Assembly (NCBI GenBank): GCA_013203045.1
Contig: JABMQN010000059.1
Coordinates: forward strand, 1 to 62,889
Direction: 5' to 3'
From: Chloroflexota bacterium
GTDB lineage: Bacteria; Chloroflexota; Dehalococcoidia; SZUA-161; SpSt-899
DNA length: 62,889 bases
Shown: positions 1 through 59,161 of the stretch, in pieces
Layout of the letters: every line of letters starts with the position of its first letter
Position numbering within the stretch: the first letter of the stretch is position 1
The notes under the pieces: generated by a model
Databases searched by the model: none
What the model was told of the DNA's origin: nothing
What the model saw: the letters and a program-made list of their open reading frames with translations, nothing else
Made by a program: the position numbers and the translations under genes

Positions 1-56
1 CGAACCAACGACCAATCGGTTATGAGCCGACCGCTCTGCCGCTGAGCTACAGGCCC
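1..56 (-). tRNA. tRNA with CAT anticodon (elongator Met or Ile2). Only the 5' two-thirds is present; the 3' end lies beyond the window start.
   Basis: The reverse complement reads GGGCCTG-TA-GCTC-AGCGGC-AGAGC-G-GTCGG-CTCATAA-CCGAT-TGGTC-GTTGGTTCG. This gives an acceptor arm, D arm, anticodon stem-loop with CAT, variable loop and the start of the T arm. Confidence 0.7.
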
Positions 57-18261: not shown

Positions 18262-19032
18262 TCACAAACTTCCGGCAGCGACCTCAGCAGCTTTTTTCCC
18301 GGAGAGAAGCATTCCGCCGAAGATTGCCCCCATTCTTGGAGAACCGTAAACCGCGTTAGCAGCCATACCAGTAACTAGCAAACCGGGATATACCTCACGG
18401 GTGTTATCGATCAGATCCTTCTCACCCACTTCGGCCAGCATTGATTTTTCGCCAATAACTTCACCGGTAGCAGTATTTAGTTTTGGTCCGAGCTTCCTGG
18501 TCACTACCCGGCATATTTCGGCGGCATGCCCGGTTGCATCAATCACTGCATTGGCCCTCACAGAGAGAGGGTCTACATGGAGGTTGGCCATGGTGACAGC
18601 GCTCCAATTTAGTACCAGCCCGATGATCCTTTCATCTTTACGAATAAGTACGTCTTCGACACTGATCAGGTTAAATATCTTTGCCCCAGCCTGTATTGCT
18701 TTTGAGCATATGGTTGAAACCGTCTCGATGGAGTCAGCGATATGATAACCAGGTTCGTACTCACTTGATCTGATGCCAAATTCATTCAGGATGGTCTTTC
18801 CCTCTTCCTGAAACACGATCCGGTTGAACATCATCCCGCCACCGGGCATTCCACCGCCAACACGAAGGCCTCTTTCGAAAATTACCGTTTTAATCCCTTT
18901 CTTGGCAAGGTAATAAGCCGCCACCATCCCGGAAGGACCAGCGCCTGCTATGGCCACATCCATTTCCATGGAATCCAGGAAGTCCTTCATAAAGCTGTCC
19001 GCTATTGCGCGGGATATTTTGATATCGTCCAT
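18262..19032 (-). CDS. thi4: thiazole synthase Thi4, archaeal/sulfide-dependent type
   Basis: 256 aa with the FAD/NAD fold [11 protein letters not shown] and GGGM..GG. It has DATGH where yeast THI4 carries the suicide Cys. Confidence 0.85.
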
Positions 19033-19093
19033 TAATTACTCTCCTTATGATCTTTGTTATCGAATATAATTATATGCCGAATCATGGCTATTC

Positions 19094-19346
19094 TCAATCG
19101 TCCTGGTTGTCAAGATTCTTTGCCAGATATACGCGTAGCGGGCATCGGTAGAAAAAAATGTTTACCAAAAGGTATTGAAAATCTGCATAGCCATGGATTA
19201 TCTTCAAAGCATTCGAGAAGGCTTTCCATACCAATGTCTTTTGTCTTGCAGAGTTTCTCAAATCCAGACTCAGCGCATACGAAATTTTTGGGACACTGCA
19301 TATCCCCAATTATCTGCTTGATCTGGTCCCTTTGAGCTTCATCCAT
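19094..19346 (-). pseudogene. small Cys-rich protein whose frame is broken at a T7 homopolymer (+1 shift needed)
   Basis: The frame from ATG 19346 gives MDEAQRDQIKQIIGDMQCPKNFVCAESGFEKLCKTKDIGMESLLECFEDNPWLCRFSIPFGKHFF. After the run of 7 T (plus-strand A 19152..19158) the other frame continues YRCPLRVYLAKNLDNQDD*. The span is 253 nt, which is 3n+1. Confidence 0.5.
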
Positions 19347-20223
19347 GACTTGTTCCTTCAACCGGATAACCGGCATCTTCCCATGCCTGCATCCCTCCTT
19401 CAATCGTTGTTACATTGTCGTATCCCGCTTCAATTAGTATTTGCACCGCCCGGGCGCTACTATTTTCATCCGGTCAGGTGCAATAGGTGATAATCTCGTC
19501 ATAATTCTCAAACTCATCGTATGGTTCTACCATATCGTCCAAGGGAATTGAAATAGCTCCGGGGATGTGGGCCTCATCATAGCTGTGCTGGTGGCGAGAA
19601 TCGATGATTATTACATTGACACCTTCATCCAAACGTGCCTTCACTGCGCGCACACTGATGCGAGGAATCTCCGGTAGATACTCACTTGGAGGTAACTCTG
19701 CATCAAGCTCAAGTTCTTCTATTGGATATCCAGCCTCTTTCCAAGCCCTGAACCCCCCTTCAATCGTTGTCACATTATCGTATCCTGCTTCAATTAGTAT
19801 TTGCGCCGCCCGGGCGCTACTATTTTCATCCGGTCAGGTGCAATAGGTGATGATTTCCTCATAGCCCTCCAGTTCAATGGATTCGGTCTTTGATACTGCT
19901 CCAATAATATGAGATTCATTGTAGTCCTCTATGGGGCGGGAATCGACGATCAGTATGTTGGCTCCAGCATCGAGTTTTGACTTCACTTCATGGATACTGA
20001 TTCGTGGCACTTCAGGAAGATAGGAGCTAGGCGGCAACTCTGTGATCGCAGGAGTTAACGATGTTTCTGTTGCGGGAATCCCTGTATTTGTACCAGGTGT
20101 TTGAGTATTAGCAGTATCGGTGATTTCTATTTCTCCGGTGCTTCCCCCATTGGAGCAGCTTGCAAATAGCAGGAAAAAGCAGACGGTTAGAATCCCAAGA
20201 GTTACAGTTTTTTTGTTTATCAC
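19339..20223 (-). CDS. tandem-rhodanese lipoprotein with two in-frame UGA (predicted selenocysteine) codons at 19834..19836 and 19474..19476
   Basis: Track ORFs 19834..20223 and 19474..19773 share one frame. Translation stays open through both TGAs to TGA 19339..19341, giving 294 codons. The sequence after each TGA completes the rhodanese fold. The N-terminus has a signal peptide and the lipobox LFASC. Confidence 0.75.
19432..19464 (-). promoter_or_regulatory. SECIS-like hairpin downstream of UGA-2
   Basis: It starts 12 nt after the UGA. Lower stem AGUA/UACU, 3' AAA bulge, upper stem GCGCC/GGUGC, and G-rich apical loop CGGGC. Confidence 0.55.
19792..19824 (-). promoter_or_regulatory. SECIS-like hairpin downstream of UGA-1
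   Basis: The geometry matches 19432..19464. The single stem difference (GGCGC versus GGUGC) turns a G.U pair into a G-C pair. Confidence 0.55.
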
Positions 20224-20275
20224 AATCTCCCTAATTTGGTGTCAGGGTATGACCGATTTCTATAGGGGACGAAGT

Positions 20276-20686
20276 TCAGAAACGAATCTCCATTGCCCTG
20301 GATGGGCAGGAGCGTACGCAAATCTCGCAAGCTATGCATTTAGTGTGATCGAAATTAACCTTCATAGTTGGACGTTCAACACTCAAAGCACCCCCGGTGC
20401 AGAGTACAACGCAGGAACCGCAATGGATGCATTTCTCCTCATCCCGGACAACATCCTTGCTTAATGGCTGAATTGCCACTCCTGTCTGCGCAAGATATTC
20501 ATTACCTTTATTATAGTTACTCTCTTCACCGCTCAGTTCCACCACCAGCACGCCTTCTTCATTAGGAGTTACGGAGGCCTTCAATATGTTGAAATCGATA
20601 TTATAATCCCTAGCTAACCGGCACAATATCGGTTGATCAACTAATTTACGAGGAAAGTGTAGAACTAATCTCTTCGAGACTGTCAT
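20276..20686 (-). CDS. NIL-domain / 2x[4Fe-4S] ferredoxin protein (MA1822-type homocysteine biosynthesis partner)
   Basis: N-terminal NIL-like domain (LVLHFP...QPIL..LA.....FNIL.A) plus CIHCGSCVVLC and CIACEICVRSCP. The likely start is ATG 20686, with GGAGGAG 8 nt upstream. The track ORF starts at 20710. Confidence 0.8.
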   Translation of the reverse strand: MTVSKRLVLHFPRKLVDQPILCRLARDYNIDFNILKASVTPNEEGVLVVELSGEESNYNKGNEYLAQTGVAIQPLSKDVVRDEEKCIHCGSCVVLCTGGALSVERPTMKVNFDHTKCIACEICVRSCPSRAMEIRF

Positions 20687-20690
20687 TGTA

Positions 20691-21896
20691 TCACTCCTCC
20701 CACCTTTCATTCAGAGGTTTGAACTGTATCCCATCCTCTAACCCCGGTAATGGAGTAACCGGATCGGTGAGCAGGAAATCGCCTTTGAGAATCCAATCTT
20801 TGAGTGTATGAGCAATTTCTACTGCCTTTGAGTAACTGGATATCGATGCCGTTGGAACCTCTTTGCCGGAAACCTCTATCTTCCCGCTCTTGAGGTCGGA
20901 ATAGCTTACTTCTCCCAGAACATCGGGTTTGCGTCCCGGGTATGCTTCAGAATAGTCCACGATTGGAGCGAATATCTCTTCATCTTTCACCGATGTGTAA
21001 CGCAGGACATCCTCGGACAGGATAGGTATAGGCACACCAACGCCCACAGCCATAGTGGTACCATAACCCCGCATACTTATTCCCCTGAGCCAAGCGGACT
21101 TCATTTGCTTCAGGTCACCAATTACAGCAAGTGTTCCCGATGGTCTGTGAGGCATGTCGTTTTCTCCTCTGGGAACGCCCGGGTTATGCTGGGTACCTTG
21201 CCAGGATACATAACCAATACCACCTCCCAGAAAGATCTTAGTGCCAATTCCAATGGTCTTGTAAAGAGGATCGTTCAATAACGGTGACAGCTGTCCTGCA
21301 CTACAGTAATTGGCGTTGCCCAGGTTTCGTTTAAGCGTGCCCATGTATGTATAGATTGTTTTGTCCGAGAGATTAACGCCCACATTGTAGTTCTGGTATG
21401 CATTTCTGATATTGAACAGCACAGCTTCATTCATCTCTTCAAGCCTGACCAAAGTCTCGACTTTCTTTCTGGGATAGCAATCGGTTCCATAAGCTGTTGC
21501 CTCTAGTTTTACATCTTTCCCTGCCACCAGTTCCTCGATCACATGCCCGCCGCCGTAGTCAAACGAGCCAGGATAAGTTTTATTCCTTGGATCATCCTCG
21601 GGCATGGCGGTTACTCCAAGGAAAACGTCTACCGCAGCAAGTCCGGTATAGAGAGGGACATCGTTCAGAGTAGCTTTTCCACCACCGATCTTAATGCGAG
21701 GTGCTGAATGACCCAGATTAAAGTATGCTCCTGAAGAACACATTGGACCAAAGGTTCCGGTGGTTACTACGTCGATTGCTTTCGCTGCTTCCTCAACACC
21801 CTTTTCTTCGACAATACCAATGATCTCTTCAGCAGTCACCACGACTGCCTGTCCGCTACGGATCTTTTCATTGATTTCCGAGATTGTTTTTGTCAC
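20691..21896 (-). CDS. COG1900/DUF39 homocysteine biosynthesis protein (MA1821-type)
   Basis: 401 aa. The N-terminal pattern T..EIN.KI..G.AVV.TAEE and TTGTFG.M.SSGA is as recalled for COG1900. It is adjacent to the NIL-ferredoxin gene. Confidence 0.8.
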   Translation of the reverse strand: MTKTISEINEKIRSGQAVVVTAEEIIGIVEEKGVEEAAKAIDVVTTGTFGPMCSSGAYFNLGHSAPRIKIGGGKATLNDVPLYTGLAAVDVFLGVTAMPEDDPRNKTYPGSFDYGGGHVIEELVAGKDVKLEATAYGTDCYPRKKVETLVRLEEMNEAVLFNIRNAYQNYNVGVNLSDKTIYTYMGTLKRNLGNANYCSAGQLSPLLNDPLYKTIGIGTKIFLGGGIGYVSWQGTQHNPGVPRGENDMPHRPSGTLAVIGDLKQMKSAWLRGISMRGYGTTMAVGVGVPIPILSEDVLRYTSVKDEEIFAPIVDYSEAYPGRKPDVLGEVSYSDLKSGKIEVSGKEVPTASISSYSKAVEIAHTLKDWILKGDFLLTDPVTPLPGLEDGIQFKPLNERWEE

Positions 21897-22026
21897 AATC
21901 TTACTCCTTATGGATTAGCTATTTTCTATTCGTTTGGCCCTTTCAGGCATAGCATGATCCATAACATTACACTATCCTTCTCTGAGACGACGTGGATACT
22001 TTCGGTAAAAATTTGGCTTAGCATCA

Positions 22027-22461
22027 CTATTTAGCAGCAATATCACGTAATTTCTTCTTCTGTCTTTCCACCAGATCCTGTAACGTTACCCCATCCAACA
22101 CTTCTTCCATTGCTTCTTTTACTTCTCCCCAAAGATCACAAGTGGCGCAGGAATCGGCACGTGGGCAAACGCTGGGATCATCCACACATTCAACAGGCGC
22201 TATTGAACCTTCGAGAAGTTCAATTACTTCCCGTACCTTGATGTCCTCTGGCCGTCGACCCAGCGCGACTCCTCCAGACGGACCACGAGTGCTTACTAGA
22301 AAACCTTCTCTTACGAGTGGAGCAATAATTCGCTCCAGGTAGTATAGAGAAATCTGTTGTCTTTCAGCGATATATTTTAATTGAACCAGACCTTCATCCT
22401 GGCTAAGAGCCACCTCCAACAATGCACGAGTACCATATCTACCTTTGGTGGATATTTTCAT
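22027..22461 (-). CDS. Rrf2-family transcriptional regulator (3-Cys, Fe-S type)
   Basis: 144 aa with the MKISTKGRYGTRALL.. wHTH and C-terminal Cys ligands (CVDDPSVCPRADSCATC). Confidence 0.85.
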   Translation of the reverse strand: MKISTKGRYGTRALLEVALSQDEGLVQLKYIAERQQISLYYLERIIAPLVREGFLVSTRGPSGGVALGRRPEDIKVREVIELLEGSIAPVECVDDPSVCPRADSCATCDLWGEVKEAMEEVLDGVTLQDLVERQKKKLRDIAAK

Positions 22462-32352: not shown

Positions 32353-33447
32353 TCACTCTATACTAAACTTGTTTTTTAGTATTTCAGAAACTCGATTAAC
32401 GTATGAAAAAGCTGTCTCAACGATTTTCTCTTCAACACTAGAGATTGTACAGCTTCCAGTCTCCTGTTTACAATCTTCTTTTTCGGTACTCAGTACCTCG
32501 ATGTTCTTAAGGCAGCATCGTGCCGGTGCAATCAGCGCCTGACGGGCAATTTGCTCAGATGAAATATCTGAATTTTCGGCAACCACCTGCCAGTAGTTCA
32601 TGGTCCTTTGTGCCAGCATTTCCGGAGTCTCACGACTCATAGCCATTGAATCGGTGGGAACGATGCCCCAGGAAATAATCCCGCCGGATTTGATGAAATC
32701 CGCTACTGCGTCTGCATATCCCTTAGGCATTACTTCCATTTGATAGGCATCAAACGATACCATGTCTAATCCCAGCTCAAGAAGATAAGGTAAATTGACA
32801 TTGGCACATAGATGAATTGCTTTCAGCCCATCGATGCCTGCCATGAAATTCCTGTAGTCTTCCTTCGCCTGAACGTCATTATAACCTGAAAGTGAAGTGA
32901 AGACCCAACCCAGTCCCGGTTCATCCACCCAAACAAAGGCGTTTCTATTTTCTTGACGCATTTCTTCGCATTGCGAATTAACCTTTCGCTGGATGAAATC
33001 ATACAGGATCGATCTAACATCCTCATTGTAGATTATGGGTTTGAGGTTCTCATCGACAATCTTGAATCCAAAGCTCACTGGCCCGGTCGATTGCCCACGA
33101 ATAGACGGATAACCTGCGAGATCTCTATCCAGAAACTTGTGAAACACTACGGAATACTCAGGACTGAGGGCGAAGTTCTCCAGTCGATCCATCCATTCTG
33201 AGTAGTCACCAATGTCTTCCATGAATTTGGAAGTATCGAAGTTCACCCTTTCGTTCTCAACATCGATAGTGACTCCGGGAAATCCTTCGGATACCTGGGC
33301 ATACATATCTTCGTGATAGGTAATGTTTGGCAGTTGGGGCCAGTATGGAATATCCATGCTGAATACCAACTCAAGTGCTTTTTCAACATCAGTATGGGGC
33401 ATGATCCCCATGGCGGTAGTTCTACAATTGGCTTCCCACTCCATCAT
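32353..33447 (-). CDS. MetE-C-terminal-like (cobalamin-independent methionine synthase / URO-D superfamily) protein
   Basis: 364 aa. The N-terminal TTAMGIMPHTD...IPYWPQLP resembles the T.IGS.P / LP.LP start of short MetE-like proteins. Recalled from memory only. Confidence 0.45.
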   Translation of the reverse strand: MMEWEANCRTTAMGIMPHTDVEKALELVFSMDIPYWPQLPNITYHEDMYAQVSEGFPGVTIDVENERVNFDTSKFMEDIGDYSEWMDRLENFALSPEYSVVFHKFLDRDLAGYPSIRGQSTGPVSFGFKIVDENLKPIIYNEDVRSILYDFIQRKVNSQCEEMRQENRNAFVWVDEPGLGWVFTSLSGYNDVQAKEDYRNFMAGIDGLKAIHLCANVNLPYLLELGLDMVSFDAYQMEVMPKGYADAVADFIKSGGIISWGIVPTDSMAMSRETPEMLAQRTMNYWQVVAENSDISSEQIARQALIAPARCCLKNIEVLSTEKEDCKQETGSCTISSVEEKIVETAFSYVNRVSEILKNKFSIE

Positions 33448-57247: not shown

Positions 57248-59161
57248 TTACTCACTCACCATTATTCTGTCAGGGGTGTCTGAAGTATCAGAGATGGCCC
57301 CGCTGTTGCGCCGACCATTATAATAACTCCAACCAACAATTCCAAACAGGAAAATAAAGGAGAAGATCATCGTGATAATGGTATCACTCTTGATTGCAGA
57401 GACGAAATCGTCAGCGATATTCCCGATTATCTCCTGGCCTTTCTCGGCTGCTACGAGTTCCACTCCATTGAGATCGGACTGATCGATTGCATCTTGGATA
57501 TCGGATTCACCACCAAGAGAATAAGCTGCCGATACTGATATGAGAATAACCAGAGAAACCCCGAACAGAACACCAAGCGCCCATATAGACCGGCCACGCC
57601 ACGCTTGGCCAGCCAGGAATCCAATACCGATCAGGAATATGATCGGAAGAACCCACCAGGCCCATAGCCATGTTCTGAACGTATCTACCGATTTGCGTGA
57701 GTCATCGAAATCCTCAAGAGCTTCTTCATCTCTTTCTTCATCTGATATTTCATCACGGATATCTTCCTGGGTGAGTGTATAGTCATTTCCTATCCAATCT
57801 CGTACATCATTAAGTTGGTCTTCGTCGTCCGGTTCAAGTTCGTCAAGGAAGTCGACTTCGGTAAATATCCAGCCATCTGAGACGTAATCACGAGCTGTTT
57901 GAAGAAAGTCTTCATTCTCCTCACCCAATGATTCTTGCAGGTCTTCTTTAGAAAAAGTCCACTGATCCGGTATCTCTTCTGAGATCGACTGATTGATTGC
58001 ATCAGCGATGATTGCATCAATATCAGTACCGAGGGCACTCTTGAATTGTGAGTAAGATACACCGGAAGGGCGACAGTCTGGCAAGTTCCGCGAGGACATG
58101 GCCTGCAATTGAGAAGCGAATTCTGTGGGAGTACACGTTGGAAGACCATTGAATAAGCTTTCTAATTTCTGGCCTGCGAGATCACCCAGAATTTCCATGG
58201 CTTGTGTCTTCTGATCAGCGAGGTCAATTGCCAAATCAATAGAATCGACTTCTCCCTTTGCATATGAGGCGATACTGTTTAAAATATCTCGCATGCGTGC
58301 GTCTACCCAGGGTTGTGGCATTACTTTTTTAATGGTGGTAGAAATCTCCTCCTGGGTCAAAATGATCCCGTAAGGAAGGTCAACGGTTATCCCGATGTTA
58401 TCCTCAACAATCGGTGTAATCAAAGTATCCAGCACATATTCATAAGTCTCCTCGCCAGTGAGTACTTCGATTGTGCCTTCAGCAATGGCATCGATTCTCC
58501 CTTTGAGGTCAAAGGCAACGGTGAAATGATCTGAATCGTCAGTAAAGTAAGGTATCACGGAATCGATGACTGACGCGAATTCGGAAGCCAGCCATTTTTC
58601 AGGCAACGCTTTCTCAAGGGATTCCTTAAGTTCTGATTTTTGAAGAGTGAGCGTGTAGGGAAGGTTTTCAAGTTTGTCGAGGATTTGATCTGCTATGTAA
58701 TCAATCATATCATCGTAAACACTGGTGAAAGCCGGACCTTGGAGGATATCGTCTTTGATCACGGTTGCGGCGGTATCCACTCTTTCTCGAAGCGGCAAAG
58801 TGTAGGTGAACTCATCTGTACTACCCATGAAATACGGTAAAGAGGCGTCAATTGCAGCTACGAACTGTTCCTGGAGCCATTCTGGTGGCAGTATGCTTTT
58901 TGCTGCCGAAATTAATTCATCCTGGATAGGGGATAGTTTAATTGGGATATCACCTGAAGTGTCATCATCTTCTACTTCATCCAGTGCTGCGGGTAAAACT
59001 TCATCATAGAAAAAATTATATACATCTGCCTTTTCCGTATGGTGGTTATAGAATCCCGTGTCATCCAATTTGTCGTTTACCTGGGTGACAAATAGTGCGA
59101 CAGTGAAGAAAACGAAGAAGAGGATGATCAAGGGAATGGCGAGAATTCGTCTGATCCACAT
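57248..59161 (-). CDS. large acidic membrane protein with internal repeats (1 N-terminal and about 4 C-terminal TM helices)
   Basis: 637 aa with a repeated module LP(P/E)(E/K)WL...F...ID...PYF...D.FT....L..R.D. I do not recognise the family. Confidence 0.6.
   Translation of the reverse strand: MWIRRILAIPLIILFFVFFTVALFVTQVNDKLDDTGFYNHHTEKADVYNFFYDEVLPAALDEVEDDDTSGDIPIKLSPIQDELISAAKSILPPEWLQEQFVAAIDASLPYFMGSTDEFTYTLPLRERVDTAATVIKDDILQGPAFTSVYDDMIDYIADQILDKLENLPYTLTLQKSELKESLEKALPEKWLASEFASVIDSVIPYFTDDSDHFTVAFDLKGRIDAIAEGTIEVLTGEETYEYVLDTLITPIVEDNIGITVDLPYGIILTQEEISTTIKKVMPQPWVDARMRDILNSIASYAKGEVDSIDLAIDLADQKTQAMEILGDLAGQKLESLFNGLPTCTPTEFASQLQAMSSRNLPDCRPSGVSYSQFKSALGTDIDAIIADAINQSISEEIPDQWTFSKEDLQESLGEENEDFLQTARDYVSDGWIFTEVDFLDELEPDDEDQLNDVRDWIGNDYTLTQEDIRDEISDEERDEEALEDFDDSRKSVDTFRTWLWAWWVLPIIFLIGIGFLAGQAWRGRSIWALGVLFGVSLVILISVSAAYSLGGESDIQDAIDQSDLNGVELVAAEKGQEIIGNIADDFVSAIKSDTIITMIFSFIFLFGIVGWSYYNGRRNSGAISDTSDTPDRIMVSE

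Follow-up and report, generated by a model that had tools for sequence, protein, structure and literature searches.

Does UGA end translation twice inside a rhodanese-like frame of a Dehalococcoidia bacterium, or is it read there as selenocysteine (Sec)? The question arises on the minus strand of a 62.9-kb stretch of DNA (contig JABMQN010000059.1, positions 1 to 62,889, of the Chloroflexota assembly GCA_013203045.1), the whole of which we call the window. The frame running from 20223 to 19339 is interrupted by TGA codons at 19834-36 and 19474-76, both directly after the peptide EIITYCT. The first-pass annotation had merged the two open reading frames (ORFs) that close at these codons into one gene for a lipoprotein with two Sec residues. 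Our comparative analysis bears this proposal out through the pairing of Sec with Cys in homologs, conservation past the TGA at 130 or more sites and a covarying hairpin, and makes it very likely that a single gene at 19339-20223 encodes a tandem rhodanese that is lipid-anchored and carries two Sec residues, each with its own Sec insertion sequence (SECIS).

The ORFs at 19834..20223 and 19474..19773 are parts of one minus-strand frame, which translates as a single coding sequence (CDS) of 294 codons (sense or UGA) plus a stop, beginning at a GTG. Beyond both TGAs this frame reads PDENSSARA(A/V)QILIEAGYDNVTTIEGG(F/M)(R/Q)AW(K/E)(E/D)AGYP, and the GTG that opens the downstream ORF is an internal Val codon of DNVTT. 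When Cys was put at both TGAs, Pfam Rhodanese (PF00581) matched the read-through product twice (E=5e-32, 110.8 bits), the better stretch covering profile positions 3-101 of 102 and crossing the second TGA. The first 67 residues, ahead of domain 1, make up a signal peptide and linker, and the terminator TGA at 19339-41 overlaps the ATG at 19344-46 of the next ORF as ATGGATGA. The structural claims of the first-pass annotation therefore held: a single frame closed twice by TGA after EIITYCT and a false start at a Val codon (translation), a conserved second half of the rhodanese domain read in frame past both TGAs (translation and Pfam), and a coupled junction with the next gene.

In the comparison suggested by the first-pass annotation, homologs carry either Cys or TGA at the UGA column and extend past it. 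Cys is found in P0001, P0003 and P0010 (YCTCPDE...), the first of which is itself a tandem protein with 50% identity to the window protein over its full length; measured against a published criterion of at least two Cys homologs (PMC1088965), the family has these three and 30 genome loci with YCxCP. Domain 1 of the locus encoding P0001 (L005:1990) reads Y-G-C-C-D-D-E, having lost the Cys two residues before the Sec position (-2) and gained one at -1 while keeping the Sec-equivalent Cys, a pattern that fits the Sec position being the essential residue. TGA forms include L001, a tandem gene with two sites, the single-domain genes L002 and L004 with an internal TGA each, the two genes of L003, and L159 and L160. 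A profile scan of genome contigs used Cys at the Sec column and returned only Cys forms, mostly from Acidobacteriota, which served as our control set.

A DNA pattern, TAY-TGY-NNN-TGA-CCN..GAR..(Ser-Ala-Arg-Ala), scanned over Joint Genome Institute (JGI) metagenomes gave at least 120 stretches. All 120 of those listed are rhodanese domains (E 5e-15 to 9e-48 against the family profile) and continue in frame through the TGA into the conserved ..GG..AW.. half. Three further Sec forms (L159, L160 and L161) were found by protein similarity; they read UGA-UCG and lie outside the reach of the DNA pattern. In total, TGA occupies the same rhodanese position at 130 or more further metagenomic sites, each followed by the conserved C-terminal half, and Sec-rhodanese genes appear to be abundant in metagenomes. 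Within the window, we found no other TGA in a coding context with long open stretches on both sides and no further selenoprotein genes; the remaining open-flanked TGAs lie in non-coding frames or between adjacent genes. Because no other such TGA exists in the window and the same position recurs so often elsewhere, the two-TGA frame is not a chance arrangement.

Genuine termination at the TGAs would make the locus either a decayed pseudogene or several short, independent ORFs whose products are truncated rhodaneses. Exactly such fragments come out of standard ORF finding and of public gene callers (P0169, P0007, P0011, P0244 and P0253, all cut after YCT, with P0169 being the window gene's own second fragment), and no Sec machinery was found in the window. 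However, the DNA of the proteins ending after YCT runs on in frame past the TGA, and the fragments lack the catalytic loop, the C-terminal helix and the strand. The downstream pieces have neither a start codon nor a ribosome-binding site (RBS) of their own, intact conserved sequence follows the TGA at both sites of the window gene as it does elsewhere, and a hairpin with compensatory substitutions is kept only beside the TGA. We regard genuine termination as very improbable.

An altered genetic code, in which UGA would be a sense codon for Trp (as in code 4) or Gly (as in code 25), would also open the frame, and some pipelines do write Trp at the site (P0002, P0004, P0005, P0154 and P0175). 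In the underlying DNA every such Trp is a TGA; the homologs that lack TGA carry Cys, and none has a Trp encoded by TGG. At L003:670-1665, a secreted and a lipoprotein form of the single-domain Sec-rhodanese are encoded side by side; both genes contain an internal UGA, and they are parted by real TGA-TGA stops, which a gene caller set to code 4 read through to fuse both into the 331-residue P0005. In the window, TGA closes 19 of the 69 long, non-overlapping, well-supported ORFs, this gene included, and splits no other gene in its coding frame; the host is a member of the Chloroflexota. Since TGA is a normal stop here, we rejected an altered code and give it almost no credence.

Bacterial SECIS elements are hairpins directly 3' of the UGA with a small apical loop that carries a guanosine (PMC1088965). 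After each UGA of the window gene, a core hairpin of five base pairs and a 5-nt loop lies at nucleotides 20-34, counted from the U of UGA, within the codons for Ser-Ala-Arg-Ala-Ala/Val. The second hairpin differs from the first by a C-to-U change that retains a G-U pair, and the first can be lengthened to 19795-19822 by an optional lower stem (UAGUA/UACUA). The form GCGCC-CG(U/G)GC-GG(C/U)GC occurred at nucleotides 20-34 in all of the first eight sites compared, and all five pairs are kept in 122 of 125 unique Sec-site RNAs among the matches listed. Codon choice hardly varies in Sec forms: one Ala is GCC in 120/125 and the other GCG in 122/125, and apart from a single AGG every Arg is CGU or CGG. 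The loop is C-G-K-G-C with G invariant at loop positions 2 and 4; in L159 its Arg is replaced by Leu (CGU to CUU) and the stem is intact. In L001, synonymous differences flank the hairpin on both sides, while its 16 nt are identical between the two copies.

We examined covariation in an alignment of 123 hairpin sequences (A3), for which the DNA search pattern had left free the 3' arm (nucleotides 30-34) and the synonymous positions 21 and 24. Standard pairs form in 99.3% of cells. Pair 20:34 is GC in 106 sequences, CG in 8 and GU in 6; pair 21:33 is CG in 106 and UA in 15; and pair 24:30 is CG in 118, with UA, AU and GC also present. Both sides are altered in 26 cells, with compensatory changes at three of the five pairs. 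None of 500 shuffles equalled the observed values, and sliding the 3' partner by 1-3 columns left 21-65% paired. The Cys forms provide a second control: all five pairs are present in only 3 of 34 genome sites (p=4e-26 versus Sec forms), and in 2 of the 6 Cys forms whose peptide is also SARA[AV] (p=4e-5). The peptide itself has drifted in the majority of Cys forms (SAAVGH, SGQAAM, SNYYVS and others). As the hairpin is paired and covarying next to the UGA and decayed in Cys forms with the same peptide, we read it as a bacterial SECIS.

In E. coli fdhF, the SECIS is a coding-sequence hairpin just past the UGA, whose small apical loop contains G(U) and lies about 20-25 nt downstream of that codon. 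The hairpins of the window gene share the in-gene position 3' of the UGA and the small G-containing apical loop, but their core has only 5 bp, their loop is C-G-K-G-C and lies one codon further from the UGA, and they are locked onto SARA(A/V). By analogy with fdhF, SelB carrying Sec-tRNA(Sec) would bind each hairpin and Sec would be inserted instead of termination; the third TGA, at 19339-41, has no such hairpin and would terminate.

Several results weigh against Sec decoding at this locus. The single-sequence folding energies of the two hairpins are unexceptional (z of about -1 and 0), so the case for a SECIS rests on comparative evidence. Searches with Rfam at gathering and permissive thresholds gave no SECIS-type match, only noise. 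No product of selA, selB or selD was found among the large ORFs of the window, and ARAGORN found no tRNA-Sec in it. The lineage might then have lost Sec decoding, leaving a relic whose UGAs are read inefficiently by near-cognate tRNAs (for Cys or Trp) or not at all; Sec machinery is not observed in the window, and Sec-to-Cys replacement does occur in this clade, since the closest tandem relative (L005/P0001) carries Cys at both sites. Under relaxed selection, however, the hairpin and the SARA peptide would decay as they have in Cys forms, which is not seen in the window gene: both hairpins are intact, their single difference keeps a G-U pair, and the ORF has no other lesions. The Dehalococcoidia also include very selenoprotein-rich genomes, with 49 and 46 selenoprotein genes reported in two metagenome-assembled genomes (PMC13326102). 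We consider a relic quite unlikely, and active Sec insertion at both sites remains our preferred reading.

The two domains of the window gene are 69% identical in DNA overall, and a direct repeat of 161 nt, at a spacing of 360 nt (120 codons), takes in both TGA regions. Inter-domain identity reaches 90-100% over a stretch that opens shortly ahead of the UGA and closes about 85 nt beyond it (19400-19500 versus 19760-19860, minus strand) and is 45-70% elsewhere. Because this stretch extends past the 15-nt SECIS core, it suggests recent gene conversion on top of SECIS constraint.

The Sec residues fall on the catalytic position of the rhodanese fold. In an alignment of the family profile to solved structures, the Sec column lies without gaps on the catalytic Cys of domain 2 of 1yt8 (C-AGRTR-S) and of both domains of 6mxv (C-GGGFR-S and C-GSGFR-S), while the Cys of YC closes the strand two residues before it. 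This gives the active site C-x-[U-P-x-E-x-(S/T)]-S, in agreement with the placement first proposed, with an invariant Cys at -2 of Sec (CxU; YC-T-U in both window domains). The entries 1yt8 and 6mxv are the best PDB sequence matches and likewise repeat rhodanese domains within a chain. They differ in being cytoplasmic Cys enzymes with loops of the C-x-G-x-R type and without CxU.

The top NCBIfam model for all domains tested was NF041203 (rhodanese_LYCAU, rhodanese-related (seleno)protein), a 126-position profile with a cutoff of 115 bits. The full-length window protein scores 149.6 bits as the sum of two domains, which reach 76.6 and 78.4 bits alone; the tandems P0001 and P0002 score 148.2 and 140.5 bits, and seven single-domain Sec forms from other contigs together with P0004 score 64-101 bits. 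As the tandems pass the cutoff only by summing two domains, the YCxUPxE..SARA clade would on these profile scores be a sister of the curated equivalog, or a wider group around it, rather than part of its core, with the motif in common; the window protein belongs to the NF041203 family or sits next to it. NF041203 and the window protein share the rhodanese fold, a Cys-x-Sec at the end of the central strand and their standing as computationally predicted selenoproteins; the catalogued form is single in both domain and Sec, whereas the window protein doubles both and adds a lipoprotein signal.

Knowledge of rhodanese selenoproteins dates back to the Sargasso Sea survey (PMC1088965), and the CxU rhodanese is catalogued as a predicted selenoprotein to which no function is assigned ('COG0607 form 2'; PMC9312934) and listed again as 'form 3' with one Sec (PMC13188914). 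Two other rhodanese-related selenoproteins have two Sec residues. In delta-proteobacterial symbionts of Olavius algarvensis, a sulfurtransferase variant carries UxU (PMC1976440); it resembles the window protein in its family, its two Sec residues and a C/U-x-U active-site motif, but both residues lie in one site, whereas the window protein has one Sec per duplicated domain, each with its own SECIS and a Cys at -2. The catalogued double-Sec rhodanese/DsbD fusion TsoB (NF045694, 'form 5', UxxxxU; PMC13188914) also has a rhodanese-like domain, and the window protein shows a weak similarity to it (55.6 bits, far under the cutoff of 805), but TsoB has another motif and a DsbD fusion of about 570 residues. 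The CxU rhodanese family is thus already catalogued, and the new element is an architecture that is tandem, lipid-anchored and equipped with two Sec residues, together with its sulfur-gene context. The novelty suggested in the first-pass annotation stands in this form: the tables list CxU rhodaneses with one Sec, the tandem two-Sec lipoprotein is absent from them, and it was rare in our survey.

Indeed, all 120 metagenomic Sec forms listed (at least 120 exist) have one domain and one Sec, and only the window gene and L001 are tandem two-Sec genes, 2 of about 125 genes among the matches listed. P0001/L005 is a tandem two-Cys form, and L159 may be a fourth tandem, as its contig breaks off within the linker that follows domain 1. 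An exhaustive search of representative sequences with P0001 found no more close tandem relatives, returning mostly generic multi-domain rhodaneses of about 30% identity. Metagenomic Sec forms are lipoproteins or secreted proteins of about 150 residues, and a few are cytoplasmic proteins of 110-126 residues. In soil metagenomes, the Sec-rhodanese module is also fused C-terminally to DedA-family membrane proteins (about 320 residues; for example L049, with U at residue 268) and to cation/H+ antiporter-like proteins (about 530 residues; for example L062, with U at residue 487); besides L049 and L062, about 35 loci among L039-L158 carry one or the other fusion.

Export was predicted from the N-terminus, MINKKTVTLGILTVCFFLLFASC, which satisfies a PROSITE-type lipoprotein rule with Cys23 and K4/K5, as the first-pass annotation had proposed. 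The rule, {DERK}(6)-[LIVMFWSTAG](2)-[LIVMFYSTAGCQ]-[AGS]-C, was applied as a regular expression and is matched by TVCFFLLFASC. Lipoboxes are present also in close relatives. The coordinates of the gene, its parts and its neighbors are collected in Table 1.

Table 1. Features of the candidate two-Sec rhodanese gene and its neighborhood, in window coordinates.
Feature	Position	Strand	Evidence
Predicted read-through CDS with two Sec codons, lipoprotein with two rhodanese domains	19339..20223	-	translation, Pfam, NCBIfam
Ribosome-binding site GGGAG, 5 nt upstream of the GTG start (20221-20223)	20227..20231	-	sequence reading
Predicted signal peptide with lipobox LFAS-C, lipidated Cys at residue 23 (codon 20155-20157)	20155..20223	-	PROSITE-type rule
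Rhodanese domain 1, residues ~68-171, active site YC-T-U-PDENS-S	19711..20022	-	Pfam, NCBIfam
UGA 1, predicted Sec 130	19834..19836	-	Cys/TGA in homolog column; aligned to catalytic Cys of 1yt8 and 6mxv
Predicted SECIS 1, core GCGCC-CGGGC-GGCGC	19803..19817	-	fold, fixed-register pairing, covariation over 123 sites
Rhodanese domain 2, residues ~182-294, active site YC-T-U-PDENS-S	19342..19680	-	Pfam, NCBIfam
UGA 2, predicted Sec 250	19474..19476	-	as for UGA 1
Predicted SECIS 2, core GCGCC-CGGGC-GGUGC	19443..19457	-	fold, pairing, covariation
True terminator TGA, no SECIS hairpin 3' of it	19339..19341	-	sequence reading
Rrf2 regulator	22027-22461	-	library profile match
COG1900/methanogenesis-marker-16-like gene	20691-21896	-	library profile match
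NIL + 4Fe-4S ferredoxin gene, immediately upstream	20276-20710	-	library profile match
Translationally coupled 78-residue Cys-rich ORF (MDEAQRDQIKQIIGDMQCPKNFVCAESGFEKLCKTKD...)	19110..19346	-	ORF list
Sulfide-dependent ADP-thiazole synthase Thi4, downstream	18262..19032	-	TIGR00292, 332 bits

The gene sits in an operon-like run (18262-22461, minus strand) of sulfide-dependent sulfur-insertion genes, which represent archaeal-style pathways in a member of the Chloroflexota. The coupled Cys-rich ORF at 19110-19346 has no Pfam or NCBIfam match and is absent from L005, where the Cys-form tandem gene overlaps Thi4 directly; after it come that Thi4 gene (identity 79%) and a NifS-like one (80%). In L159, the rhodanese gene comes after a NIL gene. 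In L160 (249-5300), genes for DsrC, for a CCG/Fer4 protein that carries a DsrC domain and for a nitrate-reductase-gamma-like (DsrM-like) protein are found close to the gene for a Sec-rhodanese lipoprotein of one domain (YCT-U-SDEQTSARA).

Elsewhere in the window, a bacterial-type MetK and Nuo subunits mark the DNA as bacterial, and the nearest named homologs of MetK are from Chloroflexota (96% identity) and Dehalococcoidia (about 84%). A MetK homolog in ENA (P0033, 673 residues) contains an internally duplicated segment of about 270 residues, which probably arose in assembly and has no connection with the selenoprotein. A partial tRNA gene with anticodon CAU is cut by the window edge (1-56, minus strand), and contigs from two JGI samples (3300032737 and 3300032731), whose genes are identical to those of the window, stop at the same points at both window edges. 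Two long minus-strand ORFs, at 57248-59161 (637 residues) and 32353-33447 (364 residues), match no Pfam family at E<=1e-5 to 1e-6.

What such a protein might do is less certain than how it is encoded. E. coli PspE and the polysulfide-sulfur transferase Sud of Wolinella succinogenes are extracytoplasmic rhodanese domains that carry sulfane sulfur on their nucleophile. Models of PspE match the window protein weakly, but in PspE and Sud the nucleophile is Cys, the loops are basic, and the proteins are soluble with a single active site per polypeptide, whereas the window protein is predicted to be lipid-anchored. The predicted product would be a membrane-anchored extracytoplasmic lipoprotein with Sec in place of the catalytic Cys in each of its two rhodanese domains. 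Its likeliest chemistry would be to transfer or reduce sulfane sulfur (or selenium) by way of a Se-S adduct, which the neighboring -2 Cys would resolve into a selenenylsulfide. The reaction would take place on the external side of the membrane, and the reduced sulfur could possibly be supplied to the adjacent sulfide-dependent enzymes (COG1900/NIL-ferredoxin and Thi4). From the sequence comparisons, we propose extracytoplasmic handling of sulfane sulfur or selenium by a Se-S intermediate, possibly feeding these enzymes, only tentatively and hold it to be doubtful as it stands; a redox or metal(loid)-binding role of the CxU pair is about equally likely.

In that second role, the CxU domains would be thiol/selenol-disulfide oxidoreductase or metal(loid)-binding modules unconnected to the neighboring biosynthetic genes, acting on extracytoplasmic protein thiols, polysulfides, selenite, arsenite or metals, a serious candidate that still falls well short of being probable. 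Among predicted bacterial selenoproteins, CxU is typical as a redox motif (PMC9312934), and the module is fused elsewhere to DedA-family and cation/H+ antiporter-like membrane proteins. Further observations count against sulfur transfer. The loop U-P-D-E-N-S is acidic (P-D-E), without the Arg that characterizes thiosulfate sulfurtransferases, and the NCBIfam GlpE and PspE models both score below cutoff (82 versus 102 bits and 37 versus 102 bits). The neighborhood is not conserved across the family: we found no family-wide neighbor, the commonest Pfam family occurring in 6 of 149 flanking ORFs, and sulfur-gene context in three closely related loci only. Sec nevertheless lies exactly at the position that carries the persulfide in rhodaneses, and those three loci do place the gene beside sulfide-dependent sulfur-insertion genes.

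The finding does not overturn current understanding, as rhodanese selenoproteins, bacterial proteins with several Sec residues and selenoprotein-rich Dehalococcoidia are all documented. It does bear on annotation, in that gene callers cut this family at the UGA or, on short contigs, switch wrongly to genetic code 4 with Trp; the fixed-register signature at nucleotides 20-34 (AGC GCC CGK GCG GYG C) could recover missed genes. In Sec forms the predicted SECIS freezes SARA(A/V), whereas Cys forms have drifted there, a clean natural case of RNA structure constraining both protein sequence and codon choice. The sulfide-dependent sulfur-insertion neighbors offer a functional lead for a predicted selenoprotein family. 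A more specific proposal, which we think unlikely, is that the protein is a dedicated extracytoplasmic sulfur or selenium harvester of marine or subsurface Dehalococcoidia, whose two Sec sites on one membrane-tethered chain would take sulfane sulfur (or selenium) off external polysulfide, thiosulfate or S0 and pass reduced sulfur to co-transcribed sulfide-dependent synthases of homocysteine (COG1900/NIL-ferredoxin) and thiazole (Thi4). If this were true, it would be the first functional link of a rhodanese selenoprotein to a biosynthetic pathway, and the harvester would be an exported bacterial protein that needs two SECIS-directed recoding events.

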